In this document: one piece after another, positions 1 through 39,689 of the stretch
Position numbering within the stretch: the stretch's first letter is position 1
Layout of the letters: every line of letters starts with the position of its first letter
IMG/VR virus record: IMGVR_UViG_3300045988_077852
Reading direction: 5' to 3' (one strand)
Length of the DNA stretch: 46,784 nucleotides
Source of the DNA: a virus
Program-made: the position numbers and the translations under genes
Notes under the pieces: model-generated
The model's database searches: none
Told to the model about the DNA's origin: nothing
Seen by the model: only the letters and a program-made list of their open reading frames with translations

Positions 1-1484
1 GGGAGTATCCCAAAGTTTGTGTAAACCTTCAAACTGATGTAAGATAATATTACTCAGTTTGGAGGTTTTTTTATGGGAAGAAGAAAAGGAGACACACCAC
101 AAAAAGCAGCATTAAGACAATTAATGCAAGGATATTTAAAGGACAATGATATCAGTGTAAAAAATGGAACAGATGTTAATGCAATCATGCGTGATATGAT
201 GTCAGTGATCCTTGAAGGTGCTCTGGATGAAGAACTCAATGAGGAACTAGGCTATTCCAGATATGATTATCGTAATAAAGATACCAATAACAGTCGCAAT
301 GGTCATTCTGGGAAAACCATGCATACCAGTTATGGGGATATGGAAATCGCTGTTCCTCGTGATCGTAATGGCGAATATGAACCCAGATTAATCAAAAAAT
401 ATCAGAATACTGTTACCCAGGACATGGAGGAAAAGATTCTCTCCATGTATGCAAAAGGCATGACGACCGGAGATATTGAATCTCACATGAAAGAACTCTA
501 CGACATTGATATATCAGACAGTACGATCAGCAGGATTACAGATAAGATCCTTCCGATCGTAAAAGAATGGCAGGAAAGACCTTTGGAAGAAGTCTATGCA
601 GTTGTTTATATGGATGCAATCCACTATCATGTGCGAAGTGAAGGCCGAATTGTAAAACGTGCTGTTTATATCGCTCTTGGGGTCAACATGGATGGTAAAA
701 AAGAAGTCCTTGGAATGTATGTGGGTGATAATGAAAGTGCTAAATTTTGGCTTTCTATCATCAATGGGCTGAAAAATCGTGGCGTTGAAGATATTCTGAT
801 CACATGTGTGGATGGACTGACAGGATTTCCACAGGCAATCGAAGCTGTATTTCCACAGACAGAGATACAACAGTGCATCATTCATCAGATACGAAATACC
901 ACAAGATATGTATCTTATAAAGACAATCGAAAAGTAATGGCTGACCTAAAGGCAGTCTATGCTGCACCAACGGAAGAGATCGCTTTAGAAAATCTTGAAG
1001 ATTTCGGAGAAAAGTGGAACTCAAAATATCCAAAAATCTATAAATCATGGAGCGAACGCTGGGCAACACTGGCTACTTATTTTAAATATCCAGAACAGGT
1101 TAGAAAACTTATTTATACAACAAATGCCATCGAAGGATTCAATCGTCAGTTGCGAAAAGTGACAAAAAGCAAAACTGTATTTCCAACTGATGACAGCTTA
1201 TTAAAAATGCTTTATTTGGCAACGATGGACATCACAAAAAAATGGACTGGTCGCAGAAGAGACTGGAGCCAGATCCGTGCACAATTAGATATATTTTTTG
1301 AAGAACGATTAGAAAAATATATGTATTAAAAATCTGTGTTTTTAGACAGGTTTATTTGACATGCCTAAAATCTTTTGTATAATGCAGATAAGGGCTATGA
1401 GTCAAAATTTGACTCATAACCCTCATAACTATTGATTAATCTTATATCAGTTTTTTGTGTTTACACAAAACTTGAAACAGTCTC
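1..1484 (+). mobile_element. IS256-family insertion sequence, complete copy
   Basis: Carries a single IS256/mutator-type transposase ORF. Imperfect terminal inverted repeats: 1-26 gggagtatcccaaagtttgtgtaaac vs reverse complement of 1459-1484 gagactgtttcaagttttgtgtaaac. Flanked by an 8-bp direct repeat ATAAAGAA (46658-46665 and 1485-1492). Confidence 0.85.
73..1329 (+). CDS. IS256 family transposase (418 aa)
   Basis: Full-length ORF with GGAGG RBS 8 nt upstream. Sequence pattern typical of IS256 transposases (YMDAIHYHVR, ITCVDGLTGFPQAIEAVFP, CIIHQIRN, TTNAIEGFNRQLRKVTK). Confidence 0.9.
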   Translation: MGRRKGDTPQKAALRQLMQGYLKDNDISVKNGTDVNAIMRDMMSVILEGALDEELNEELGYSRYDYRNKDTNNSRNGHSGKTMHTSYGDMEIAVPRDRNGEYEPRLIKKYQNTVTQDMEEKILSMYAKGMTTGDIESHMKELYDIDISDSTISRITDKILPIVKEWQERPLEEVYAVVYMDAIHYHVRSEGRIVKRAVYIALGVNMDGKKEVLGMYVGDNESAKFWLSIINGLKNRGVEDILITCVDGLTGFPQAIEAVFPQTEIQQCIIHQIRNTTRYVSYKDNRKVMADLKAVYAAPTEEIALENLEDFGEKWNSKYPKIYKSWSERWATLATYFKYPEQVRKLIYTTNAIEGFNRQLRKVTKSKTVFPTDDSLLKMLYLATMDITKKWTGRRRDWSQIRAQLDIFFEERLEKYMY

Positions 1485-1552
1485 ATAAAGAACACGCATT
1501 AAGTTATATAAATGTCTTAGAACGTCTGCCAGTGCCTTTTGACGTGATATAA
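1485..1552 (+). pseudogene. 3' fragment of the small phage gene split by the IS (continues ORF 46492-46665)
   Basis: Removing the IS and one copy of the 8-bp duplication joins ...CKDKE (46665) in frame to HALSYINVLERLPVPFDVI*. The stop is at 1550-1552, immediately before a terminator. Confidence 0.6.
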
Positions 1553-1585
1553 AAAAGAGCCGTAGGTTAATTCCTACGGCTTATT
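1551..1585. terminator. Bidirectional intrinsic terminator between convergent genes
   Basis: Stem gccgtagg (1559-1566) / cctacggc (1573-1580). An A6 tract lies upstream, which gives a T-run on the minus strand for gene 1586-1828. TTATT lies downstream on the plus strand. Confidence 0.7.
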
Positions 1586-1828
1586 CTATGCGTTCAAATA
1601 CAATTTTTTTAATGATTCATTATCTGGATAGTCTAAATCCAACCACTTATCAAAAGCTTCTGGATTTCTCTTTTCCAGTTCATCCATAATCCAACCACGG
1701 ACCATGGACAATTCAAGACTAATTGGTATAGCTTCGGTCATGTCAAATTCTTTTATAAGCTGTTCTATTGATAATCTACTCAGCATAGCTCTTGCGTTCT
1801 TTTCTGCGTTCTTAGTCATATTTCCCAA
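1586..1828 (-). CDS. hypothetical protein (80 aa; TTG start, alternative ATG at 1819)
   Basis: ORF track. GAGGG RBS 7 nt upstream of the TTG. Last gene of a three-gene leftward operon ending at the terminator. Confidence 0.55.
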   Translation of the reverse strand: MGNMTKNAEKNARAMLSRLSIEQLIKEFDMTEAIPISLELSMVRGWIMDELEKRNPEAFDKWLDLDYPDNESLKKLYLNA

Positions 1829-1866
1829 CTTTCTACCCTCGTAACCTCCGGGGTGGGTGGTGTATG

Positions 1867-2127
1867 TTATGCAGGTATTACAAGACTGTCACGATCAGCC
1901 TTGACAAGACGATTTTTATTAAGTCTATCTTTCCACTGTTCAACAAGTGATTCATGGAGCTTTAAGGCTTCTTTCTTGCTGCAGGTTGTATAAGAATCAA
2001 TTTCTTCAAAATCATCCATATACATTACAACGGTTTGGTATTCGTGTAATACTTCCACATAAGCTGTGGAAATATTACATTCTGTTTGATGTAACCAAAA
2101 TTTGTGTCTTGCGATTACTTTATTCAT
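1867..2127 (-). CDS. hypothetical protein (86 aa)
   Basis: ORF track, trimmed to the ATG at 2127, which has an AGGAGGG RBS 7 nt upstream. Overlaps the upstream gene by 8 nt. Confidence 0.6.
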   Translation of the reverse strand: MNKVIARHKFWLHQTECNISTAYVEVLHEYQTVVMYMDDFEEIDSYTTCSKKEALKLHESLVEQWKDRLNKNRLVKADRDSLVIPA

Positions 2128-2332
2128 TTTCAATCCCTCCTAAAATCTTTTTACAAGCTTCTACATATCCGTCTGGAAGTGTTTCAGTGTTCATCTTCCC
2201 ACCGTTTGCTCTCCATTCGAGATATTTTTTAACTTCTTCTTTTTCTTCTTCCAGTTCGTAAATAAATTCTTCGTAGGAAACGAAGTCCTCATTTTCGACT
2301 AACTTTTCAATTTCTTTTCTTAATTCTTTCAT
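2120..2332 (-). CDS. hypothetical acidic protein (70 aa)
   Basis: ORF track. AGGGAGA RBS. First gene of the leftward operon, downstream of a consensus-like promoter. Confidence 0.6.
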   Translation of the reverse strand: MKELRKEIEKLVENEDFVSYEEFIYELEEEKEEVKKYLEWRANGGKMNTETLPDGYVEACKKILGGIENE

Positions 2333-2376
2333 CTTCTTTTCTCCCTTTTAAATGCTTTTCGTTTATCTTTAACTAG

Positions 2377-2405
2377 AGTATAAATGATTTTAGTTTAAAT
2401 GTCAA
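2377..2405 (-). promoter_or_regulatory. Sigma-A-type promoter for leftward operon 2332-1586
   Basis: On the minus strand: TTGACA (2405-2400), 17 nt spacer, TATACT (2382-2377). Confidence 0.55.
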
Positions 2406-2428
2406 TGGTAAAAATAAACTTTTTTCGT

Positions 2429-2457
2429 TTGACATATGATATATTTTAAATTATAAT
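2429..2457 (+). promoter_or_regulatory. Consensus sigma-A promoter for HTH gene 2487-2732
   Basis: TTGACA (2429-2434), 17 nt spacer, TATAAT (2452-2457). Back-to-back with the leftward promoter. Confidence 0.6.
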
Positions 2458-2486
2458 GATTTAAAAACAGAAAAGAGGTGTGGTTG

Positions 2487-2732
2487 ATGGAATACAATAT
2501 AAACTTTACTTACAAGGACAACAAGCAATTAAAAGAAATCTACAAAGAACTACTAAAAAGGAACGGCATGACAATGACAGAAGCGTCACAGCTCTTAGGA
2601 TTGTCAACACCGCAGCAGCTAAACAACAAATTTAATAATAAAAAAGTATCCTTAAGTGATTTAAAGGATTTTTTGGGTATAATGGGATATGATTACGAGA
2701 TAATAATAAAAAAGAGATCTGGGAGCTTTTGA
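2487..2732 (+). CDS. small HTH DNA-binding protein (81 aa)
   Basis: ORF track, trimmed to the ATG at 2487 (GAGGTG RBS). Segment MTMTEASQLLGLSTPQQLNNKFN looks like a helix-turn-helix. Divergent from the leftward operon. Confidence 0.6.
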   Translation: MEYNINFTYKDNKQLKEIYKELLKRNGMTMTEASQLLGLSTPQQLNNKFNNKKVSLSDLKDFLGIMGYDYEIIIKKRSGSF

Positions 2733-2749
2733 GTTCTTCCAGATCTCTT
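2712..2749. terminator. Bidirectional hairpin terminator between convergent genes 2487-2732 and 2753-3226
   Basis: 11-bp perfect stem aagagatctgg (2712-2722) / ccagatctctt (2739-2749). A-run upstream and T-run downstream. Confidence 0.6.
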
Positions 2750-2752
2750 TTA

Positions 2753-3226
2753 CTATGCAATTCTTGAAACATTGGAAGTCTTTACTTTTTCACTTCCGTA
2801 TTTTCTTTGAATGTCCTCGAAAGACATTTTCTTTTTATGCCACTTTCCAGATGGCTCTGTTGAGAAGTGCCACTTTTTACGATTCTTAGACCACTTAAAG
2901 CCTAACTTCTTTAGCTCTTCTTTGTACGGGAATGTATTACCATCTACCCAAATCCAAGAGCCTACTACCTCGATATTTACACCATCGAAAGAAACAATAT
3001 TATTAATAACATTTCTTAAGGCTTCGTCTGCCTTGTAATCAAATGTATTTTTCTTTTCTTCTTCTGGTGTCTGCCCTGCCTTGAACATGTCAAACAGTTT
3101 CTTGTATTCGGCTGTAATCTCTTGACATGTAACAACGTCTCCACCGTTGTCCGGGTGGTTGGCTACCATTAATTTTTTGTATTCTTTTCTGAGTTCCTGT
3201 AAGTTTTTGGCTGTAAAATATTTCAT
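2753..3226 (-). CDS. J-domain (DnaJ-like co-chaperone) protein with non-DnaJ C-terminal domain (157 aa)
   Basis: N-terminus LRKEYKKLMVANHPDNGGD carries the HPD tripeptide in a J-domain helix II-III context. AGGAGG RBS. The C-terminal part (GSWIWVDGNTFPYKEELKKLGFKWSKNRKKWHF) is unrelated to DnaJ Gly/Phe or zinc-finger regions. Confidence 0.85.
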   Translation of the reverse strand: MKYFTAKNLQELRKEYKKLMVANHPDNGGDVVTCQEITAEYKKLFDMFKAGQTPEEEKKNTFDYKADEALRNVINNIVSFDGVNIEVVGSWIWVDGNTFPYKEELKKLGFKWSKNRKKWHFSTEPSGKWHKKKMSFEDIQRKYGSEKVKTSNVSRIA

Positions 3227-3257
3227 GATAACACCTCCTAAATTGTCTAGCAGAGAC

Positions 3258-3425
3258 TTATAAAATCTCTGCTAAGCTAATAACCTGTGATTCTGATAAA
3301 TTATCCATGACGATCTCGTCTCCTTTGTGGAGTTCGAATCTGTCTGGAAAAGTTCCAAACCATCCGTCAAACTGATTGTCAATGTAGTATCCTTTTGATT
3401 CTAATTTTTTGATTGCTTCTTTCAT
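3258..3425 (-). CDS. small hypothetical protein (55 aa; below the ORF-track cutoff)
   Basis: My translation of the minus strand: MKEAIKKLESKGYYIDNQFDGWFGTFPDRFELHKGDEIVMDNLSESQVISLAEIL*. AAGGAGA RBS. First gene of the operon that also holds the J-domain gene. Confidence 0.5.
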   Translation of the reverse strand: MKEAIKKLESKGYYIDNQFDGWFGTFPDRFELHKGDEIVMDNLSESQVISLAEIL

Positions 3426-3471
3426 CTTATTATCTCCTTTTCTGATTGCTTTGTTCTCTTAACTTACTTTT

Positions 3472-3500
3472 ATTATACATAGAATCTATGTATACGTCAA
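3472..3500 (-). promoter_or_regulatory. Promoter for leftward operon 3425-2753, with a palindrome in the spacer
   Basis: On the minus strand: TTGACG (3500-3495), 17 nt spacer, TATAAT (3477-3472). The spacer contains the palindrome CATAGA-A-TCTATG (3478-3490). Confidence 0.55.
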
Positions 3501-3508
3501 TAGAAAAG

Positions 3509-3525
3509 TGCATAAAAATTATGCA
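3509..3525. promoter_or_regulatory. 17-bp palindromic operator, copy 1 (TGCATAA-AAA-TTATGCA)
   Basis: Perfect 7-bp inverted arms. Lies between the -35 boxes of two divergent promoters. A second copy is at 3830-3846. Confidence 0.55.
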
Positions 3526-3533
3526 TAAAATTC

Positions 3534-3562
3534 TTGATGTAAAATCATGAGTATGCTATAAT
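3534..3562 (+). promoter_or_regulatory. Promoter for HTH gene 3585-3815
   Basis: TTGATG (3534-3539), 17 nt spacer, TATAAT (3557-3562). Confidence 0.55.
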
Positions 3563-3584
3563 GATGTAAAAGGAGGGAAAAACG

Positions 3585-3815
3585 ATGATAAAATACAAAT
3601 TAGATGTGCAGGAAGAATTGAAGAAAAAAGGGTATACTTCTTATATAATAAGAAAAAACAAGTATTTAAGCGAGGGAACACTTGCAAAGATAAAGCGAGG
3701 AGAACCAATAAATATGAAAAGTCTTAATGCTATTTGCTGTATGCTCAGAAAAAATGTAGATGATGTAATTGATATAGAAATAACAGATGATGAAAAAATA
3801 AAATATTTTATCTAA
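3585..3815 (+). CDS. Xre/Cro-type HTH transcriptional regulator (76 aa)
   Basis: ORF track. AGGAGGG RBS. Pattern LSEGTLAKIKRGEPINMKSLNAICCML is typical of short Xre-family HTH proteins. Flanked on both sides by the same palindromic operator. Confidence 0.7.
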   Translation: MIKYKLDVQEELKKKGYTSYIIRKNKYLSEGTLAKIKRGEPINMKSLNAICCMLRKNVDDVIDIEITDDEKIKYFI

Positions 3816-3821
3816 AAAGTG

Positions 3822-3850
3822 TTGACTTATGCATAAACATTATGCATAAT
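3822..3850 (+). promoter_or_regulatory. Rightward promoter with operator copy 2 filling the spacer
   Basis: TTGACT (3822-3827), 17 nt spacer, CATAAT (3845-3850) preceded by TG. The palindrome TGCATAA-ACA-TTATGCA (3830-3846) occupies the spacer. Confidence 0.5.
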
Positions 3851-4049
3851 AAAGACAGTTAAAGGAGACACAAGAGAAGCAAGAGAGAAAGCCGAAAAAG
3901 AAATGTTCGGGAAATTTTTAGAAGAGCGCAAAGAGTATGTAAAGGATAAGAAAAACTGAAAGACGGTAAAAGAATCAAATAAAAAGAGTGTAAACAAAGG
4001 CACTTTCTACTATGGTATAATTATATTAGATAATAACCATAGTCGGGAG

Positions 4050-4235
4050 GTGTCTTTTTTGATTAATAACAAACTAAAGAATTGCTGTAACGATTGCGTA
4101 CATTGCGAGATCGTGACGGAGACAAAGAGAAGAGCAATCCCAGAAAACAAAACAGAAGTGGTACTGGTAAACATAAAGTGTAGTCATATGTGCGTATGCA
4201 GTAGATACCAGAAAGAGGTGCAGAATGGAAGATAG
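4050..4235 (+). CDS. small Cys-rich protein (61 aa; start uncertain, GTG 4050 or TTG 4059)
   Basis: ORF track. GGGAGG RBS. Contains CCNDCVHC ... CSHMCVC, suggesting a zinc-binding mini-protein. Confidence 0.45.
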   Translation: MSFLINNKLKNCCNDCVHCEIVTETKRRAIPENKTEVVLVNIKCSHMCVCSRYQKEVQNGR

Positions 4236-4395
4236 AAGTATATGCTGTGCTGAATGTATGTATCTACTAGGAAGTAATACAAAGAACTACTATATGTGTA
4301 ACGTAGGCAAGTATGACAGAATAGACAACGCATATCTATGCACCTGCGACAAATATAAAAGCAGGAATCCAAGCACAAAAGAATATAAGAGATAA
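4225..4395 (+). CDS. small Cys-rich protein (56 aa; below the ORF-track cutoff)
   Basis: My translation: MEDRSICCAECMYLLGSNTKNYYMCNVGKYDRIDNAYLCTCDKYKSRNPSTKEYKR*. AAGAGGTG RBS. Overlaps the previous ORF by 11 nt. Confidence 0.45.
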   Translation: MEDRSICCAECMYLLGSNTKNYYMCNVGKYDRIDNAYLCTCDKYKSRNPSTKEYKR

Positions 4396-4524
4396 TAACA
4401 GATCGTTAGAGGTGGTAAATTTCGTTGCAACCACGCACCCTATGGGTTAAAAGAGATGCAAGAGATGTGACGCTTGCCTAACGGTCTGTTTAAATATATA
4501 TAAACCTAGAAAGGATGTGAGAAG

Positions 4525-4800
4525 ATGAATCTAAATAGAATTATGCGAAAACTACAAAGAGCAATAGTATCAAACGGATTTGTAATAAGCTTAGACACAA
4601 CACAATTCTATTCAGAGGACCAGAAACGAATGATAACAATGTACATCCTGTCTATAAAAGCATATGAGAATACAAGAAAAGGTTGGAAAGACACACGGTA
4701 TGAGATACTAAGAACTGCTTCACAAGTGGACATAATTAAATGCCTGTCTGATATATGGGCAAGTATACGAGAAAGGAATTGGCAAATAAATGCGGAATGA
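4525..4800 (+). CDS. hypothetical protein upstream of terminase (91 aa)
   Basis: ORF track. AAAGGA RBS. Overlaps the terminase start by 11 nt. Confidence 0.6.
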   Translation: MNLNRIMRKLQRAIVSNGFVISLDTTQFYSEDQKRMITMYILSIKAYENTRKGWKDTRYEILRTASQVDIIKCLSDIWASIRERNWQINAE

Positions 4801-6421
4801 ACTTACACAGAAGCAAAGAACATTTGCTCATGCATGGATAAAAAACGGTGGGAATGATTATCAAGCCGCTATCGAAGCAGGATATTCCCCTGCAACAGCG
4901 AAGAACGCAAAAAAGAACATCATTGAAAAGCATGGAGTGAAAGAATATATAGCAGAACTACAAGCCAAAACAGACAAGGAAAACGGCTATGATATTATGA
5001 GTCTTGCAGACATACAGCGAAGACGGTCAATGATCGCCACTGGTGCGTTGCAAGATTCTTTTGGATTTACCCCAGATTTCCCAGACCAGTTAAAAGCCAT
5101 GAATGACTTAGAAAAGGCTTTGACGGTGCAGACAAAGGAAGAGGAAGAAAAGAAAGCAAGAGAAGAAGCATTAAGGAATAAGACATATCACATGGACCTT
5201 GATATAATCCCCGATGTGTTCCATCCAATGGTTAGAGATATAAGGAATCATGGCCATACAGAATATGTATTACCAGGGGGACGTGGTTCGAGTAAATCTT
5301 CTACGATACCTAACATTATAACGGAGCTTATGAGGAATGATCATAACATGCACGCACTTGTTGTAAGACAGGTGTACAACACTGTAAAGGATTCTGTGTA
5401 TGCTAAAACTAAGTGGGCAATAACAAAGCAGGAGTTCACGGAAAAAGAATATAAGTACACAAGCTCGCCTTATGAAATTACCATGAAAGACACAGGGCAA
5501 AAAGTATATTTTCGTGGTGCTGATGACCCAGACAAGATTAAATCAATTTCCCCAGAGTTCGGATATATCGGCATACTGTGGTTTGAAGAACTGGACCAGT
5601 TCGCAGGACCCGAAGCAGTGAGAAATATTGAACAGTCCGCTATTCGTGGTGGAGATAAGGCATATATATTTAAGAGCTTCAACCCACCGAAAAGTGCTAA
5701 CAATTGGGCAAATCAATATTTGCAAGAACCAAAAGACAACAGAATGATTGTAAGAAGCACATATCTAGACGTACCTAAAGAGTGGTTAGGCAAACCGTTT
5801 ATCGAAGAAGCGGAACACCTAAAAGAGATCAGACCCGAAGCGTATGAACATGAATACATGGGCATTGCTAACGGTAACGGTGGGGCAGTATTTGAGTATG
5901 TAGAAGTAAGAAAAATTACAGACAAAGAAATATCACAGATGGACCGCATATATCAAGGCGTTGACTGGGGATGGTATCCAGACAAGTACGCATTTACGAG
6001 GACATACTACGATGCGGCAAGAGAAACGATCTATTTAATAGATGAGCATTGCGTAAATAAGCGATCGAATGAGCAAACAGCCGAATGGATAAAGAAAAAA
6101 GGCTATAACGATTATGCAATCATTTGTGATAGTGCAGAGCCTAAATCTGTAGAGGACTATAGAAACTTAGGTCTTGTGGCACAGGCAGCAGTTAAAGGCC
6201 CAGGGTCAGTTGAATACGGCATGAAATGGCTACAACGTAGGAAGATTGTGATTGACCCACGGAGAACACCATACGCATACAAAGAAATTACAACGTATGA
6301 GTATGATAGAGACAAAGACGGTAATATAATAAGCGGATACCCAGACAGAGACAATCATGCTATTGATTCGTTGAGATACGCATACAACAGAGTGATCATG
6401 AGGAGAGGAGAGAACGCATAA
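4790..6421 (+). CDS. terminase: N-terminal small-subunit-like domain fused to a PBSX-type large subunit (543 aa)
   Basis: Residues 1-~115 (LTQKQRTFAHAWIKNGGNDYQAAIEAGYSPATAKNAKKNIIEKHGVKEYI) match the Terminase_2/P27-type TerS pattern. A K/E-rich linker follows. The TerL part has Walker A GGRGSSKS (nt 5276-5299) and a C-terminal nuclease-type region (DSAEPKS, NHAIDSLRY). There is no stop codon between the two parts. Confidence 0.88.
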   Translation: MRNELTQKQRTFAHAWIKNGGNDYQAAIEAGYSPATAKNAKKNIIEKHGVKEYIAELQAKTDKENGYDIMSLADIQRRRSMIATGALQDSFGFTPDFPDQLKAMNDLEKALTVQTKEEEEKKAREEALRNKTYHMDLDIIPDVFHPMVRDIRNHGHTEYVLPGGRGSSKSSTIPNIITELMRNDHNMHALVVRQVYNTVKDSVYAKTKWAITKQEFTEKEYKYTSSPYEITMKDTGQKVYFRGADDPDKIKSISPEFGYIGILWFEELDQFAGPEAVRNIEQSAIRGGDKAYIFKSFNPPKSANNWANQYLQEPKDNRMIVRSTYLDVPKEWLGKPFIEEAEHLKEIRPEAYEHEYMGIANGNGGAVFEYVEVRKITDKEISQMDRIYQGVDWGWYPDKYAFTRTYYDAARETIYLIDEHCVNKRSNEQTAEWIKKKGYNDYAIICDSAEPKSVEDYRNLGLVAQAAVKGPGSVEYGMKWLQRRKIVIDPRRTPYAYKEITTYEYDRDKDGNIISGYPDRDNHAIDSLRYAYNRVIMRRGENA

Positions 6422-6600
6422 TGATGATAAATTTAAAAGATGTAACTTGTATACAAATTGGAAATGTAATGTTAGGCATCAAGGATATAGAAAAAATATC
6501 TATCCATGATGGTGGGGTTTGGCTTACGATTAATGGCGATTTGATACAAGGAGATATAGAAACAAAAATCGGAAACGTTAAACTGATAGCGGTGGAATAG
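6421..6600 (+). CDS. small hypothetical protein (59 aa; below the ORF-track cutoff)
   Basis: ATG overlaps the terminase stop (TAATG), and the stop at 6598-6600 abuts the portal ATG at 6601. My translation: MMINLKDVTCIQIGNVMLGIKDIEKISIHDGGVWLTINGDLIQGDIETKIGNVKLIAVE*. Confidence 0.5.
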   Translation: MMINLKDVTCIQIGNVMLGIKDIEKISIHDGGVWLTINGDLIQGDIETKIGNVKLIAVE

Positions 6601-8019
6601 ATGGGTATAATAAGCAGAATGAAAGAGATATTAAGTGCCCTTTTTAAACAAAGGGCAAGAGAAGAATTTAAGATTGATACTGTTACCAGTCCAGAGATGC
6701 AGAGAGTTATAGAAAAATGTGCATACATCTATAAGGGCAGTCCGTACTGGTTAGACAAGGACGAACATATCAAGACTATCAACTTTGCAAAAGCGGTGTG
6801 TTCGGAGACAGCACGTCTTGCTACACTTGCAATAGGTATAGAGATAGATGGCAGTGCAAGAGCTGATTGGTTGCAGGAGCAGATAGACAAGGAACTGGAA
6901 CAGGTACGACATCACGTAGAATATGGCTGTGCATACGGTACAGTTGTATTAAAGCCTAACGGTGCAAGTGTGGACTTGATTACACCAGAGAACTTTATAG
7001 TAACAGACGAAAGCAACGGAGAAATTCAAGGAATTGTATTTGTGCATCGTGAAATCTCCAGTGATGGCAAGACGTATTACACGAAGCTAGAGTATCATAG
7101 GTACATCGAGGACGTGTATCAGATTACAAATCGTTGCTATGCTTCTAAGGATGCAAACGATACAGGAAAGCCAATTGACATAGACGAGACACCTTGGAGG
7201 GGAGAACTGGAAAATGTAGGACTTACAAACCTAAACGGACAACGTCTGTATGCAGTTCTTAGGACACCGCAGGCGAACAATGTAGACTTGCATTGTAGTT
7301 TAGGATTGCCTATCTTTTACGAAGCAATAGAAGAACTAAAAGATTTAGACACTGCATACAGCAGGAACGCAACAGAGATATTCGACAGCCGAAGAATGTT
7401 GTTACTAGACTCCGACAAGCTGTTAGAGACTGGTACAAGGGTAAATAATACACAGGATGGATTTGAGAGAAGCAAGAAGCGGTTAAGACTGCCAGAGTAC
7501 GTCAAGAATGTAAATAGCTCAGACATTAAAGGATTCTATCAAGAGGTAAACCCAAGTCTCAACACAGATACACGATTGACAGGAATCAATGCCCTGCTGT
7601 CACAGATTGGGTATAAGTGCGGATTCTCTAACGGATACTTTGTGTTTAACGAAACAACAGGCATCCAGACAGCAACAGGAGTTGAAGCAGAGCAACAGAG
7701 GACGATACAATTTGTTAAGGACGTAAGAGACAAATTACAAGCCTGCATGGATGATCTGATTGCAGCACTTAATATATTCGCTGATCTGTACCAATTAGCA
7801 CCAAGCGGACCGTATGAAACCGTGTATGACTTTGGAGACATTACATATAACGAAGATGAAGATAGAGCGAGATGGTACAGCTATGTTACTTCCAACAAGA
7901 TTCCATTCTGGTACTATCTAGTTAAATTTGAGGGATTCAGTGAAGAAGAAGCAAAAGCACTTGAAGAAGAAGCACAACCGAAAGAGCCAGACTTATTCGG
8001 TGCAAGCGGAGAGGAGTGA
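6601..8019 (+). CDS. portal protein (472 aa)
   Basis: Position immediately after the terminase, size, and an acidic C-terminus. Resembles SPP1 gp6-type portals by eye. Confidence 0.75.
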   Translation: MGIISRMKEILSALFKQRAREEFKIDTVTSPEMQRVIEKCAYIYKGSPYWLDKDEHIKTINFAKAVCSETARLATLAIGIEIDGSARADWLQEQIDKELEQVRHHVEYGCAYGTVVLKPNGASVDLITPENFIVTDESNGEIQGIVFVHREISSDGKTYYTKLEYHRYIEDVYQITNRCYASKDANDTGKPIDIDETPWRGELENVGLTNLNGQRLYAVLRTPQANNVDLHCSLGLPIFYEAIEELKDLDTAYSRNATEIFDSRRMLLLDSDKLLETGTRVNNTQDGFERSKKRLRLPEYVKNVNSSDIKGFYQEVNPSLNTDTRLTGINALLSQIGYKCGFSNGYFVFNETTGIQTATGVEAEQQRTIQFVKDVRDKLQACMDDLIAALNIFADLYQLAPSGPYETVYDFGDITYNEDEDRARWYSYVTSNKIPFWYYLVKFEGFSEEEAKALEEEAQPKEPDLFGASGEE

Positions 8020-10336: not shown

Positions 10337-10504
10337 ATAAATGTAACAAGTAATAAGTTGTTGAATAAATTATTATAAGATTTCATTTTTAGTTTTAAAT
10401 GAGAGTGGTTTGTTTCGGAGATACTTTTTCATGTTATAATACTTTAATCCTTTCTTTATTGTTTTGTTATGTATATAGTACGGTGGATTCCTCACGGAGT
10501 CCGT

Positions 10505-10578
10505 GGAAGTATAACTCAGTTGGTCAGAGTAGTCGGCTCATAACCGACCTGTCACAGGTTCGAGCCCTGTTGCTTCCA
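10505..10578 (+). tRNA. tRNA with CAU anticodon (elongator Met or lysidine-modified Ile2; not initiator-like)
   Basis: Hand-folded cloverleaf. Acceptor GGAAGTA/TGCTTCC (one G-U). D arm ACTC-AGTTGGTCA-GAGT. Anticodon arm GTCGG-CTCATAA-CCGAC. Variable loop CTGTC. T arm ACAGG-TTCGAGC-CCTGT. Discriminator A. No encoded CCA. Confidence 0.9.
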
Positions 10579-10705
10579 TTTGCTCACTGTTGTGAGCATG
10601 AGAAATCATTTTTGAATTTCCTCAATTTTTTGGTTTAAATTTCATTTTTCAACACGACACCTTTTTTCATCAATTGGTGTTCCTCAATCTTATCCTTATT
10701 GTTCA

Positions 10706-29664: not shown

Positions 29665-30420
29665 ATGGCACATACGGTAGACAAGCTTCTTACAGTAGCA
29701 AAAGGAGAAGTCGGATACTTAGAGAAGAAAAGCAAGAAGAATCTAAACAGTAAGACAAAAAACGCAGGTAGCAACAACTACACTAAGTACGGAGCATACT
29801 TTGGTATTAACGGACCAGATGCTTACTGGTGTGACATGTTTGTGGATTGGTGTATGGTGCAGGCATACGGCAGGGATGTAGCAAAAAAACTCTTACATGG
29901 ATTTAGTGCATACACTCCAACATCGGCGCAAAAATTCAAAGACAATGACCAGTGGCATAAAACACCGCGGATTGGAGATCAGATTTTCTTCAAAAACTCT
30001 CAAAGAATCTGTCACACTGGGATTGTGTATGCAGTAACTGATGAGATGGTGTTCACGATCGAGGGAAACACATCTAATGGAACAGCCGTTGTACCAAACG
30101 GTGGTGCTGTATGCAAGAAATCCTACGCAAAGAGTAACAGCCGTATCGCAGGATATGGACGACCTAAATATGATAACGTAAAAGTATCATACAGCGTTGT
30201 AAAAAAGAACTCTTCCAAGAATGCGATCAAGTGGTTACAGAAGAAGCTGAACGCAAATTGTACATATGCAAACGAACATCCATTAGCGGTTGACGGAATC
30301 TGGAAAGCAAAGACAACGCAAGCCTTGAAGAAATACTGGAAACAGTTAGGATGGAACACGTCTGGAACATATGCAGGAAAGAAAACTTGCACAGCTTTGA
30401 AAAAAAATCGAAAAAAGTAG
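29665..30420 (+). CDS. endolysin: CHAP/NlpC-P60-type N-terminal domain plus a peptidoglycan-binding repeat (251 aa)
   Basis: Catalytic Cys context YWCDMFVDWC and His context ICHTGIVYAV...IEGNTS. C-terminal IKWLQKKLN...LAVDGIWKAKTTQALKKYW resembles PG_binding_1. Confidence 0.85.
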   Translation: MAHTVDKLLTVAKGEVGYLEKKSKKNLNSKTKNAGSNNYTKYGAYFGINGPDAYWCDMFVDWCMVQAYGRDVAKKLLHGFSAYTPTSAQKFKDNDQWHKTPRIGDQIFFKNSQRICHTGIVYAVTDEMVFTIEGNTSNGTAVVPNGGAVCKKSYAKSNSRIAGYGRPKYDNVKVSYSVVKKNSSKNAIKWLQKKLNANCTYANEHPLAVDGIWKAKTTQALKKYWKQLGWNTSGTYAGKKTCTALKKNRKK

Positions 30421-30469: not shown

Positions 30470-30488
30470 TGTTCCATTTTCGTTCCAA
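30470..30488 (+). repeat. Two GTTCCA iterons on the left (P) arm of attP
   Basis: TGTTCCAT (30470-30477) and CGTTCCAA (30481-30488), spaced 11 bp. Confidence 0.6.
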
Positions 30489-30537
30489 CCAAAATTGAGA
30501 AAACATGAGTTTATGCGGTTTGAGAGCATTTTGACCC

Positions 30538-30584
30538 CTTGACTTTTAATCAAGTTGTCCGGGGTTCGAATCCCCGCACGCTCA
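30538..30584 (+). other. attP core: 3' two-thirds of a tRNA-Lys(UUU) gene (anticodon arm to discriminator)
   Basis: CTTGA-CTTTTAA-TCAAG (anticodon TTT), variable loop TTGTC, T arm CGGGG-TTCGAAT-CCCCG, 3' acceptor strand CACGCTC plus A. There is no matching 5' acceptor strand or D arm upstream. Adjacent to the integrase. Confidence 0.7.
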
Positions 30585-30592
30585 CTTTAAAA

Positions 30593-30630
30593 AGCACGGT
30601 TGCCAAATGGCTAAATACCGTGCTTTTCTT
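30593..30630 (+). terminator. Intrinsic terminator following the tRNA-like attP core
   Basis: Stem agcacggt (30593-30600) / accgtgct (30617-30624), followed by TTTTCTT. Confidence 0.65.
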
Positions 30631-30705
30631 GTATTTATGCGGTTTTTAAGGATATGACTTATCTAAAAATCATACCCTTAAAAGTAACCGAAAGTAACTT
30701 GAAGT

Positions 30706-31959
30706 TTAGGGAAGTATTTGTTCCATAGCTGTTCCATGTTCCATTTTTGTTCCAGAAACATTCTTGAAAAGCCATGATAATAAATCTCTGAGTTGTTCCA
30801 TTTTTTGTTCCACTGGTTGTTCCATTTTTTGTTCCAAATCTACGAAACTTAATGCATTATTTACAGCAGACACTTTATCTTCTTTTTCCATCATGATATG
30901 GTTGTATACTTTCATTACAACTTCTTCTGAATCTCCAACTAATTTAGCAACCATCTTGATACTGATAAGTGGAATCTGGTAGCATAAACAAGAACAATAA
31001 TTATGTCTGAAAACATGGCTTGTCAATCCCTCGATGATACTAGGGCTGACTGCCTGCATAGCTTTTAATATTCTGTCAAACATTCTTCGAAAACCAGATT
31101 TTGTCATAGGTTTGTAGTTTTGGTTTACAAAAAGATATTTTCTTTTGTCTTTCCTCAGCATAGATATATAGTCGGCTATATAATCAAATACACTGTTAGG
31201 AATTGGAAGTATTCTTTCTCCGTTAGTTATATTTTTTACCGTTTTTACAAAAGGAATATTATCTGATATGTCGTGAGATTTAGTGATAGATACTGTATGG
31301 GCTTCTAAGTCGAAGTCACTTTCTGTTAGTGCTAGAGCTTCTCCACGCCTTAATCCACAGCCGTAAAGGATGTAGGCATACAATTTATCCATTGGTTTAA
31401 AATCTGCCGTAAAAACGGCTCTCTGTTCGTCTGGTGTCAAAGCACGTTGTTCGTCTGCTTTATATTTGATTCCCTCAAAATCGTCAAAAACGTCTGCGAA
31501 TGTTTGAGCAGAGAAAATACGATCACGTACAGCACTACGCAATATTTGCTTGAATGTCATAGCAATCTGCTGTTGAGTTCGTGGATGCCCTGTAGCATGG
31601 TTTAATAGCAATTGGAAATGTTTTCGCTCAATGTCTTGCAATTTGGTATAAGCTATCGGAATAAAATGTACGTTGATAATGTTTTCATACATTTTGTTTG
31701 TATTATTAGCACGACTAAATTCTTTGTATAAATGTCTCCATTGTACAGCATATTCAATAAATAATATGTCAGTTTCAATGATTCCACGACGTTCATCCCT
31801 TAATCGTTCAAATTCTTTTACTTTCTTTTCAAGGTCCTTAGAGCTTTTTGGAGATCGCAGGTGTTTATATTTTTTTTTACCGTTATCCTTGTATGTACCA
31901 TCCCACACGTTGGTAGAATAGTAACCGTCTTTACCTTTTTTGAATTTAGCTGTTGCCAT
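30706..31959 (-). CDS. int: tyrosine integrase with a ~45-aa C-terminal extension encoded by iteron DNA (417 aa)
   Basis: GLRRGEALAL (Arg), HVFRHNYCS (H-x-x-R), VMKVYNH (Tyr). Arm-binding-type basic N-terminus. AAGGAG RBS. The C-terminal KMEQPVEQKMEQ...GTKMEHGTAMEQ is encoded by GTTCCA repeats. Confidence 0.9.
   Translation of the reverse strand: MATAKFKKGKDGYYSTNVWDGTYKDNGKKKYKHLRSPKSSKDLEKKVKEFERLRDERRGIIETDILFIEYAVQWRHLYKEFSRANNTNKMYENIINVHFIPIAYTKLQDIERKHFQLLLNHATGHPRTQQQIAMTFKQILRSAVRDRIFSAQTFADVFDDFEGIKYKADEQRALTPDEQRAVFTADFKPMDKLYAYILYGCGLRRGEALALTESDFDLEAHTVSITKSHDISDNIPFVKTVKNITNGERILPIPNSVFDYIADYISMLRKDKRKYLFVNQNYKPMTKSGFRRMFDRILKAMQAVSPSIIEGLTSHVFRHNYCSCLCYQIPLISIKMVAKLVGDSEEVVMKVYNHIMMEKEDKVSAVNNALSFVDLEQKMEQPVEQKMEQLRDLLSWLFKNVSGTKMEHGTAMEQILP
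30719..30837 (+). repeat. Eight GTTCCA iterons in two clusters within the 3' end of int
   Basis: Cluster 1 starts at 30719, 30730, 30738 and 30748. Cluster 2 starts at 30794, 30806, 30818 and 30830, with an exact 12-bp period. 30793-30829 is an inverted near-copy of 39242-39278. Confidence 0.8.
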
Positions 31960-33098: not shown

Positions 33099-33126
33099 GT
33101 AAAAACCCTCCTTTTTATAACAATCA

Positions 33127-33246
33127 CAGGCAAGGTGGCAACCACAATCGCAGGCAAATCGCAGGCAAGAAACCACGTATTTATGCGGTTTTCAAGACTT
33201 TTTGCATAGTTGCATCACAGGCAAATCGCAGGCAAATGACAGGCAA
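33127..33246 (+). repeat. Iteron-like CAGGCAA heptamers (six exact, one degenerate), mostly at 11-bp phase
   Basis: Exact copies at 33127, 33151, 33162, 33218, 33229 and 33240. Degenerate GTGGCAA at 33136. Located upstream of gene 32283-33098. Confidence 0.75.
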
Positions 33247-33313
33247 ACATCAATCAACTATGCATTTTCTTTTTTTAAAGTCCAAGAAACAACGGTTTTA
33301 TGCGGTTTTCAGC
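33165..33313 (+). repeat. Two ~32-nt direct repeats CAAGAAAC-N-ACG-NN-TTTATGCGGTTTTCA, each followed by one arm of an 11-bp inverted repeat
   Basis: Units at 33165-33196 and 33283-33313. ACTTTTTGCAT (33197-33207) is the exact reverse complement of ATGCAAAAAGT (33317-33327). The 8-bp IR TGCATAGT (33203-33210) / ACTATGCA (33257-33264) flanks the triple iteron. Confidence 0.75.
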
Positions 33314-33951: not shown

Positions 33952-34331
33952 TTATTTTTCTGTTTAAGATATATAAGTGACATTTCATACTGAGCTAATA
34001 TCGCATCAAGAGATTCATCGTCAAGTTTTTCCCCATCGTAGTAGATAAGGTGTCTAGTCCTGTTTTTAAGTAAATCTCTCATTCTCTCCAGTTCGTCTTT
34101 GATGTCTATTACACGGTTATCTTTTTCTTTTTTATCTTCCTCCTTTCCCGTCATTAGGTAATCAACTGTTACACCGAAAAAATCGGCAATCTTCTGTAAC
34201 TTTTTGATGCCTGGTTTACTTCTACCAACTTTCCAATCAGAAAAAGTTGACTTAGAAACGCTAGCTTCTCTTGCTACATCAGAATCTTTCAGACCTCTTT
34301 CGTCACGCAGTTTTTGATAAATTTCGTACAT
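33948..34331 (-). CDS. Xre-family phage repressor (CI/ImmR-like, 127 aa)
   Basis: Trimmed to the ATG at 34331. HTH LKDSDVAREASVSKSTFSDWKVGRSKPGIKKLQKIADFFGVTVDYL. Divergent from the cro-like gene. Confidence 0.8.
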   Translation of the reverse strand: MYEIYQKLRDERGLKDSDVAREASVSKSTFSDWKVGRSKPGIKKLQKIADFFGVTVDYLMTGKEEDKKEKDNRVIDIKDELERMRDLLKNRTRHLIYYDGEKLDDESLDAILAQYEMSLIYLKQKNK

Positions 34332-34530: not shown

Positions 34531-34725
34531 ATGTATAAAAAATATTGTGCGTTAAGGGACAAAAGGAATCTGACAGATTACAGAGTGTCAGAAGATACAG
34601 GAATTGTAAGGTCTACGTTTACGGATTGGAAAACAGGAAGAAGTAAACCGGGCATCAAAAAGTTAAAGGCATTAGCTGATTACTTTGGTGTGACAGTAGA
34701 TTATTTTTTAGAGGAGAGTGAGTAG
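34531..34725 (+). CDS. Cro-like Xre-family HTH protein (64 aa)
   Basis: AAGGAG RBS. The HTH TDYRVSEDTGIVRSTFTDWKTGRSKPGIKKLKALADYFGVTVDYF is very similar to the repressor HTH. Confidence 0.75.
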   Translation: MYKKYCALRDKRNLTDYRVSEDTGIVRSTFTDWKTGRSKPGIKKLKALADYFGVTVDYFLEESE

Positions 34726-38894: not shown

Positions 38895-39689
38895 ATGAAC
38901 ATAAATATAAATACAGACTGGGAATGGTATGAAAATACAAATGTATTTAGATTATTTTATCATTGCCTACTACATACAAATTTAGAGGATAAACGGTACT
39001 GCGGAAAAGAAATCAAGGCAGGACAATTTGTTTCTTCTATAACAAGAATCAGTGCAGAGACAGGATTGACAGAATCGCAGGTACGAACAGCACTAAAGAA
39101 ACTAAAAGACACTGGGTACATATCCACAAAAAGCACAAATAAATACACGATATACACAGTAAATGAGTATCAGAAGTACATAGATTGTGGACAAGTTGCA
39201 GAAACAACTACCGAGGAAAACACGATGGTTGAAAATGGAACAAAAATGGAACAACCAGTGGAACGAAAAATGGAACAAACAGAGGAAAAAGTAAAGGAAA
39301 CTTGCGAGAAATCAAAAGAAAATTGCGAAAAGTCGAACAAAAAAGCAATCAATGAATGTTTTGAAAGACTCTGGAAACAGTACCCGAATAAACGTGGTAA
39401 AGGACAGGTATCCGACACAAAGAAAAAGACTCTGTATGAGATAGGAGAAGAAAAAATAGAAAGAGCTTTGAAAAGGTATCTGGATGATTTATCTAAGGAC
39501 AGTAGTTGGAGAAAACCACAGAACGGAAGTACATTCTTCAATTCTGGTTACGTGGATTATCTGGACGAGAACTACGAGAAACCACCAGAACCGAAGCCAC
39601 AGAGGAATCCTGCAAGTGTCTTAGAATGCGAGAGAGATTATGACTTTGATGATTTAGAAATGCAGTTACTACATAAGCAATTAGAGTAA
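38895..39689 (+). CDS. replication initiator / replisome organiser (264 aa) with internal iterons
   Basis: N-terminal winged-helix-like region (FVSSITRISAETGLTESQVRTALKKLKDTGYIS). C-terminal FERLWKQYPNKRGKG motif, common in phage DnaD-like/replication proteins. Iterons at 39235-39277. Confidence 0.6.
   Translation: MNININTDWEWYENTNVFRLFYHCLLHTNLEDKRYCGKEIKAGQFVSSITRISAETGLTESQVRTALKKLKDTGYISTKSTNKYTIYTVNEYQKYIDCGQVAETTTEENTMVENGTKMEQPVERKMEQTEEKVKETCEKSKENCEKSNKKAINECFERLWKQYPNKRGKGQVSDTKKKTLYEIGEEKIERALKRYLDDLSKDSSWRKPQNGSTFFNSGYVDYLDENYEKPPEPKPQRNPASVLECERDYDFDDLEMQLLHKQLE
39235..39277 (+). repeat. Four TGGAAC(A) iterons inside the replication gene (candidate ori), followed by an 18-bp-period direct repeat
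   Basis: ATGGAACA at 39235, 39246 and 39270. GTGGAACG at 39258. Downstream direct repeat TTGCGAGAAATC / TTGCGAAAAGTC (39302-39331) in an A-rich stretch. Confidence 0.6.

Follow-up and report, generated by a model that had tools for sequence, protein, structure and literature searches.

The DNA analysed here, called the window throughout, is the full 46,784 nucleotides of IMG/VR record IMGVR_UViG_3300045988_077852. It is a temperate phage genome with an intact phage attachment site (attP), next to which lies the gene for a tyrosine integrase (int). Past int comes a lysogeny module, consisting of an M78 peptidase gene, a cI-like repressor gene and a cro-like gene, and then the rightward early genes, which include ERF, NinB/Orf-like, RusA and the replication initiator gene (rep). 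Our subject is the word TGGAAC, which is arrayed both around attP and within rep. It occurs 41 times in the window, compared with 21.2±4.4 times in shuffled sequences, and none of 100 shuffles reached 41. Twelve copies lie around attP in the approximately 485 bp between 30352 and 30836, and four more lie within the 41 bp from 39236 to 39276 in rep (Table 1). The initial annotation of this DNA had found all four copies in rep and ten of those near attP; the ten are there, but its total was too low because an inverted pair on the plus strand, at 30352 and 30363, had been missed. The period of 11-12 bp that it had given holds for the rep array and for the attP array that we call cluster A, but not for cluster B.

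Table 1. Features of the attP and rep regions, with positions in the window
Feature	Position	Strand	Remarks
Endolysin gene, CHAP/peptidoglycan-binding	29665-30420	+	upstream of attP core
Distal P-arm TGGAAC pair (30352, 30363)	30352..30368	+	in endolysin 3' end; inverted relative to all other attP sites
P-arm TGGAAC pair (30471, 30482), 11 bp apart	30471..30487	-	about 50-60 nt from core
attP core, 47 nt	30538..30584	+	identical to 3' part of tRNA-Lys(UUU), anticodon arm to acceptor end
Terminator-like hairpin followed by T-run	30590..30627		between core and cluster B; -18.1 kcal/mol, z = -4.0
int, tyrosine integrase, 417 aa	30706..31959	-	PF00589, phrog_1
TGGAAC sites inside int	30720, 30731, 30738, 30749, 30795, 30807, 30819, 30831	-	
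Cluster B, four predicted arm-type sites, spaced 11/7/11 bp	30720..30754	-	family-wide P' arm set
Cluster A, four tandem TGGAAC, 12-bp period	30795..30836	-	extra P' arm array
rep, replisome organizer / replication initiation protein	38895..39689	+	N-terminal winged helix-turn-helix, low-complexity linker, conserved C-terminal domain
TGGAAC sites in rep	39236, 39247, 39259, 39271	+	
Four TGGAAC putative iterons, spaced 11/12/12 bp	39236..39276	+	in rep linker

The attP core is the crossover region; in prophage relatives it forms the end of a complete tRNA-Lys(ttt) gene. In the window it is flanked by eight TGGAAC sites in the P' arm and by two pairs in the P arm. Relatives of the integrase (Int) were gathered from viral contigs, metagenomes and phage records, with identities from 47 to 100%. 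The nine lineages that they represent all target tRNA-Lys(UUU), and they do so with one common layout: four direct sites spaced 11/7-8/11 bp directly after int, then 150-190 nt with a hairpin, the core, 60-70 nt, and a pair of sites 11 bp apart. The P-arm pair is kept in every Int lineage for which an intact attP was available. The distal inverted pair is found in many relatives but not in all, being absent or reduced to a single site in some close ones (for example L083, L097 and L363), and it may be dispensable. The sequence of the word itself varies. It is TGGAAC in the classes to which the window belongs and also in L476-478 (56% Int identity) and L479 (52%), TGAGAC or TGAGAT in L480 and L481, TGATAC or TGACAC in L141, and TGGACA or TGAGACA in phage phiCs5676-1; the lineages other than that of the window have same-orientation clusters of their word at attP only. 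The word tracks the Int lineage and not the rest of the phage, and phages with another replication module have the same attP arrays. Because the sites hold fixed positions on both arms, have a word unrelated to the core and vary with the integrase, the TGGAAC copies at attP are predicted to be integrase arm-type sites. The hairpin beside the core, which a simple terminator scan missed on account of its long loop, probably terminates the restored tRNA gene as well as the late-operon and int transcripts; a GC-rich hairpin with a T-run can also be read between the arm sites and the core in the sequences of several relatives.

This anatomy resembles that of lambda-type attP systems, in which a tyrosine recombinase uses repeats on both arms that are unrelated to the core, the 3' end of int abuts the P' arm, integration at a tRNA 3' end restores the terminator, and the arm word co-varies with the Int lineage. 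The comparison class includes the P1, P2 and P'1-3 sites of lambda and the heterobivalent tyrosine integrases of Tn916/Tn1549. The attP of lambda has five arm sites over about 240 bp, whereas the window has 12 sites over about 485 bp. Unlike in lambda, the int open reading frame (ORF) here reads through four to eight of the arm sites, and four of them form a 12-bp tandem that is homologous to the putative origin iterons of the phage itself.

A second short word, TTATGCGGTTT, also lies near the core. It has four exact copies in the window (30511-30521, 30635-30645, 33181-33191 and 33298-33308), and six matches when one mismatch is allowed, compared with 0.9 expected. The copies at 30511-30521 and 30635-30645, both on the plus strand, stand one on each side of the core, between it and the arm clusters; the other two are intergenic, between the int-side ORF and the M78 peptidase gene. 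The flanking pair may be where an accessory or directionality factor binds, and the overall pattern would suit a directionality factor with a second role at a promoter, in the manner of Cox or Apl.

Int has the catalytic domain of a tyrosine recombinase (PF00589 scores 63 bits, the cut-off being 27.1; phrog_1 integrase at 7e-53), and the nearest PDB chain in a profile search, 6emy 'Int protein' at 9e-20, matched this catalytic part alone. An AlphaFold2 model of residues 1-80 (predicted local distance difference test score 83) has strands at 14-23 and 29-36 and a helix at 40-62, so that in the model the first 60 residues form a beta-hairpin followed by a helix. In heterobivalent integrases the separate arm-binding domain at the N-terminus consists of a three-stranded sheet and a helix. 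At the other end of the protein, the conserved C-terminus of the family closes with ...EKED..AVNxAL near residue 372. The 417-residue Int of the window therefore does have the unusual tail of about 45 residues that had been reported for it. Relatives of at most 59% identity stop immediately after the conserved end, leaving cluster B intergenic. In the classes of 64-74% identity the ORF spans cluster A and stops before cluster B, giving proteins of 384-392 residues, and only in the class of the window does cluster B fall within the int ORF; elsewhere it follows the stop codon. All three frames are used to read the sites, and since TGGAAC on that strand contains no stop codon in any of them, ORFs pass through such arrays with ease. 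The tail of Int is what the ORF encodes as it crosses clusters A and B; the DNA sites are conserved, the peptide is not.

This bears on the peptide that Int and the Rep protein have in common. Three units are read in the same frame in the two genes, giving KMEQPVEQKMEQ in Int and KMEQPVERKMEQ in Rep. The first site in rep is read in another frame (AAT GGA ACA), so the shared peptide spans three of the four units, and the earlier statement that frame and peptide agree applies to those three only. The peptide is present in both proteins as described, but it is a by-product: the position of the Int stop codon shifts from one class to another.

Comparison with PHROGs places Rep with phrog_270 ('replication initiation protein', 1e-23) and with DnaD-like and O-like families. 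Families of winged helix-turn-helix (wHTH) domains in Pfam fall just under the cut-off (HTH_36 at 22-24 bits against 25), and the protein matched no solved structure and no Pfam family above the cut-off. Its wHTH N-domain and a separate C-terminal domain, the latter conserved across representatives of the family, give it the make-up of lambda O and SPP1 gp38. The Rep cluster is tight, with identities of at least 80% inside it and of at most 48% to the next clusters. More distant relatives, obtained through a 50%-cluster search and from phage records, have repeats of their own at the equivalent position in the linker. These are GACAA six times at 11-12 bp in Dulem virus 39 (49% identity), GCAAACGAAT four times in a Vibrio phage (53% identity in the N-domain), and CGACAGT in L476 (44% identity). 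All ten distant representatives with a printed linker have a repetitive, low-complexity one. The rep gene of this family thus carries intragenic direct repeats, spaced at about one helical turn, that differ between relatives. Within the cluster of the window the array has two to four TGGAAC copies, flanked at the same period by degenerate AGGAAA units (at approximately 39214, 39283 and 39295). Codon choice within the repeats is almost invariant: Glu is GAA in 179 of 179 cases and Gln is CAA in 126 of 127, compared with 61% and 40% elsewhere in rep. As regards an AT-rich unwinding element beside the iterons, the DNA downstream of the repeats is A-rich to the eye, and a 2-kb profile gives this region a G+C content of about 0.36-0.37; GC skew tracks the direction of transcription and does not locate the origin.

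Judged by these comparisons, the TGGAAC repeats of rep stand at the iteron position of the family, which is the arrangement of lambda O and SPP1 gp38 (G38P): an N-terminal wHTH, a C-terminal domain, and direct repeats of 11-12 bp in the DNA that codes for the linker. The initial annotation had proposed a lambda-O-type origin arrangement, and the relatives, with their own 11-12-bp iterons exactly there, bear it out. The phage departs from lambda O and SPP1 gp38 in that its iteron word is also the integrase arm word and in that no helicase or helicase loader gene was recognized beside rep in the window. A second cluster at a distance had been described as not classic, a view that overlooked SPP1, whose gp38 binds at oriL, which lies within gene 38, and at oriR as well, and in which the second cluster can matter (PMC6316719, PMC3485210). 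Like SPP1, the phage has one cluster in the initiator gene and a second one kilobases away (PMC6316719). Unlike oriR, its second cluster is placed and conserved in the way expected of integrase arm sites and is present with other initiators.

The linker-coding part of rep holds one further repeat, a 21-bp pair (TTGCGAGAAATCAAAAGAAAA / TTGCGAAAAGTCGAACAAAAA) at 39296-39340 that encodes CEKSKEN and CEKSNKK. Relatives have two, one or no copies of it.

The two arrays share more than a word. The segments 30793-30829 and 39242-39278 form an inverted repeat of 37 nt that is 97% complementary, with the single mismatch originally reported, and the four-unit arrays at the int 3' end and in rep can be aligned across some 48 nt at the cost of a single mismatch and a 1-nt gap, close to the 50 nt that had been given for the match extended by indels. 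Both four-unit arrays have the spacers AAAAA(A), AACCAG and rAAAAA. Among the attP arrays only cluster A is homologous to the rep array in this block-like manner, and as it also shares its spacers with the rep iterons we conclude that DNA was therefore copied between attP and rep. Cluster A is confined to Int classes of at least 64% identity to that of the window. It has no units at 59% identity or less, two at 64-72%, and three or four in the classes at 65%, 74% and 97-100%; its middle spacer is AACCAG, AACCTA or AAAGCA according to class, and the rep block has AACCAG, the version of the window's own Int class. The apparent stepwise growth of cluster A favours a transfer from attP to rep, while the canonical position of the iterons and the decaying units that flank them point to a rep array that is native and by which cluster A was converted. 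Within genomes, variation in cluster A does not correlate with variation in the rep block, which gives no hint that gene conversion between them is still going on. Of the three explanations first offered for the two clusters, the one in which Int arm sites were copied into the replication gene comes closest, in that both the arm sites and a copying of DNA between attP and rep are borne out.

The arrays at attP do not require this Rep. Six contigs whose Ints are 97-99% and 65% identical to that of the window have the full attP arrays, cluster A included, together with an unrelated replisome organizer (phrog_10469/5968) and a DnaC-like loader, and there is no TGGAAC cluster beyond those at attP in about 20 kb. 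Similarly, L476 combines TGGAAC arms with its 44%-identical Rep homologue on CGACAGT repeats. These cases argue that the attP arrays go with Int and that coupling to the initiator is not obligatory for keeping them. Initiator binding near attP, put forward at first as one explanation of the attP cluster, is consequently not a requirement for it. As to whether relatives keep both clusters, the six contigs keep the attP arrays with cluster A but have no rep TGGAAC cluster.

We propose that the window contains two ordinary arrays of binding sites that have one recognition word and one copied block in common. The 12 TGGAAC(A) sites near the tRNA-Lys-like core would be arm-type sites of a heterobivalent tyrosine integrase, with the N-terminal domain of Int on the arm sites and its catalytic domain at the core, forming an intasome for integration and excision. 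The int ORF would run through the P' arm sites and so acquire a non-conserved tail of about 45 residues with incidental MEQ repeats. The four TGGAAC sites in the rep linker would serve as origin iterons, recognized by the wHTH domain at the N-terminus of the replisome organizer, and the identity over about 48 nt would reflect a short segment that was copied, or gene-converted, between cluster A and the origin (ori). The anatomy of the two loci, the pattern of their conservation and the independence of the attP arrays from Rep are matters of observation, and we think that the combined model built on them is probably correct, though with only moderate confidence. Each array alone is textbook; the common word and the copied block of about 48 nt are unusual, and no description of the same word and such a block at arm sites and iterons was found in the literature searched.

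Several observations weigh against this model. Which protein binds which array is inferred from sequence, and the N-terminus of Int had no match in Pfam or in a PDB profile search that would confirm an arm-binding fold, nor did a Foldseek search of its model against the PDB return anything below E = 1. L479 and L141 both have 'TARVWDGTY' in Int and yet use the words TGGAAC and TGATAC, respectively, which suggests that the arm word is not simply predicted by the N-terminal residues of Int. On the side of replication, some Rep variants have only two TGGAAC sites, few for an origin, and a column-wise comparison of synonymous positions found one of four block columns polymorphic compared with 16 of 36 elsewhere, a weak contrast that involves few columns. 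Finally, in about 100 intervals from int to rep, taken from viral and metagenome contigs and belonging to one phage cluster, the TGGAAC-type Rep was seen with TGGAAC-type Int only, and a dependence of this Rep on this attP or Int is possible.

That association leads to the best of the alternatives, in which either protein, or each of them, sits on the sites of the other (Int, through its arm-binding domain, on the origin iterons; Rep on the P' arm), so that recombination gates replication: Int might block firing of the origin at lysogenization, or Rep on the P' arm might prevent re-integration or stall forks. Should Rep really read TGGAACA, occupancy of ori by Int and of attP by Rep would be physically likely, and should both proteins read it, cross-occupancy could not be avoided. 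The two places agree in the word, its flanks and three spacers, the sites are kept at synonymous positions in both genes, and SPP1 gp38 at its second cluster, oriR, has been proposed to stall forks (PMC6316719, PMC3485210). The exclusive pairing of TGGAAC-type Rep with TGGAAC-type Int would also fit, but it may merely reflect common descent in one phage cluster. Set against cross-occupancy are the persistence of the full attP array with an unrelated organizer, the eight other Int lineages, which have no copy of their arm word in replication genes, and the lack of correlation between block variants within genomes. We regard such cross-talk as unlikely and are equally doubtful that an exchange of site arrays has wired the origin and the attachment site to the same DNA-binding proteins.

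The rep block could instead be a passenger, a copy of cluster A that landed in frame in a tolerant, disordered linker and has no part in the origin. The true sites of Rep would then be elsewhere, for example at the AGGAAA units or the 21-bp TTGCGArAArTC pair. Cluster A does seem to have grown in place within the Int lineage, TGGAAC is much more widely spread among Ints (52-100% identity) than the Rep cluster reaches (its nearest neighbour being at most 48% identical), and the copy number in rep varies from two to four. We nevertheless hold this to be improbable, because the block lies exactly at the iteron position of the family with the same 11-12-bp period, every Rep variant seen retains at least two TGGAAC sites, and no other repeat is universal, the 21-bp pair being absent from some variants.

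It is less probable still, and in our judgement very unlikely, that the attP clusters are not integrase sites at all but a second origin or initiator-binding region comparable to the oriR of SPP1. The identity of the word with the rep iterons and the SPP1 precedent for two clusters (PMC6316719) are what this proposal has to offer. Homologous clusters occur at the same positions in lineages with unrelated replication genes (rolling-circle REP_ORF2-G2P, other organizers), the words of those lineages differ and are absent from their replication genes, and neither in the six contigs nor in L476 did the attP cluster depend on its initiator.

We give next to no credence to the idea that the repeats are kept for a peptide, a KMEQ motif useful in both proteins, and not for their DNA. 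Int and Rep do carry the same peptide, but the sites fall in three different reading frames, as cluster B and the first rep site (NGT) show, half of them follow the stop codon in most Int classes, further sites are intergenic or on the opposite strand, and synonymous positions are frozen; the frame and stop-codon data alone already contradict it. Weakest of all is the suggestion that the inverted copies bound an invertible segment of 8.4 kb that swaps the 3' parts of int and rep in frame, which, despite the 37-nt, 97% inverted repeat read in the same frame, is almost certainly wrong: all 100 distinct int-to-rep intervals have one divergent order, with 5.9-8.1 kb between the gene starts, none contains an Int-Rep chimeric ORF, and a dedicated invertase is not evident. 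Invertible segments of the Gin/Hin/Cin type are bounded by inverted repeats. The phage resembles them in having inverted repeats around a multi-kilobase stretch, and it differs from them in that no invertase is evident, none of 100 relatives is inverted and the repeats are explained otherwise.

The host group can be read as gut Clostridia and the phage family as a human-gut, Lachnospiraceae-type one; the named relatives of Int come from Anaerostipes, Lachnospiraceae and Clostridiales. A search with Rep returned 3,089 proteins at E <= 1e-5, of which the 120 listed were 88-95% identical, indicating that phages with this Rep are a very abundant family in the human gut. When both regions were compared with the phage collection by megablast, the only match at the DNA level was the core, in a Clostridium scindens phage. 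A scan of GTDB genomes with Rep gave no match, and a GTDB scan for RTGGAACAACCARTGGAAC gave 46 stretches, none encoding a relative of Int or Rep; five clustered ones that were inspected proved to be low-complexity coding repeats, three of the five being Gly/Thr-rich repeats of NGTT type. A scan of viral contigs for three TGGAAC at 11-12 bp returned at least 120 stretches, most of those listed lying in contigs unrelated to this phage group, and was uninformative.

The interval between int and the repressor gene seems to be a hot-spot for cargo. Two metagenome loci, L502 and L547, have other cargo upstream of the early genes. In L547 type III-A CRISPR-Cas genes (60-6180; Cas6, Cas10/Csm1 and Csm3-5-like RAMPs) lie directly upstream of the early genes, in the place occupied by int and the lysogeny module in the window; they may be cargo of the phage, part of an adjoining host region or the result of misassembly. 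L502 has large ORFs at 630-6623, one of them for a Double-GTPase 2 (DO-GTPase2) protein, within 10 kb upstream of the early genes, and no Int homologue was found in those 10 kb. Loci other than these two that appeared to have Rep without Int were considered as carriers of different integrases, a possibility that was rejected when their contigs proved to be trimmed at the prophage edge.

Three other features of the window lie outside the two arrays. A third iteron-like array, six copies of ATC[GA]CAGGCAA in tandem runs with an 11-bp period, occupies 33124-33246 and is arranged as a composite direct repeat of about 117 bp, the halves of which end in GAAACnACG..TTTATGCGGTTTTCA. An imperfect inverted repeat of 93 nt (34159-34251 and 34611-34703, 77% complementary) has one arm in the ORF of the cI-like repressor and the other in the cro-like ORF. 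A tRNA-Met (CAT) gene is found at 10504-10579, some 20 kb upstream of the lysis genes and attP.

The arrays described here annotate a very abundant family of human-gut phages. If both proteins read TGGAACA, the phage would have a simple link from the lysogeny decision to replication, that is, a direct cis-acting tie between site-specific recombination and the initiation of replication. Its iteron set would then have been captured from, or donated to, the arm array of the integrase, and arrays of binding sites would be shown to pass from one DNA-binding system to an unrelated one. Should neither protein bind the array of the other, the copied block would be an instance of phage mosaicism at a scale of 50 nt, and it would advise caution with repeated peptides in the tails of ORFs, which can be the shadows of DNA sites.

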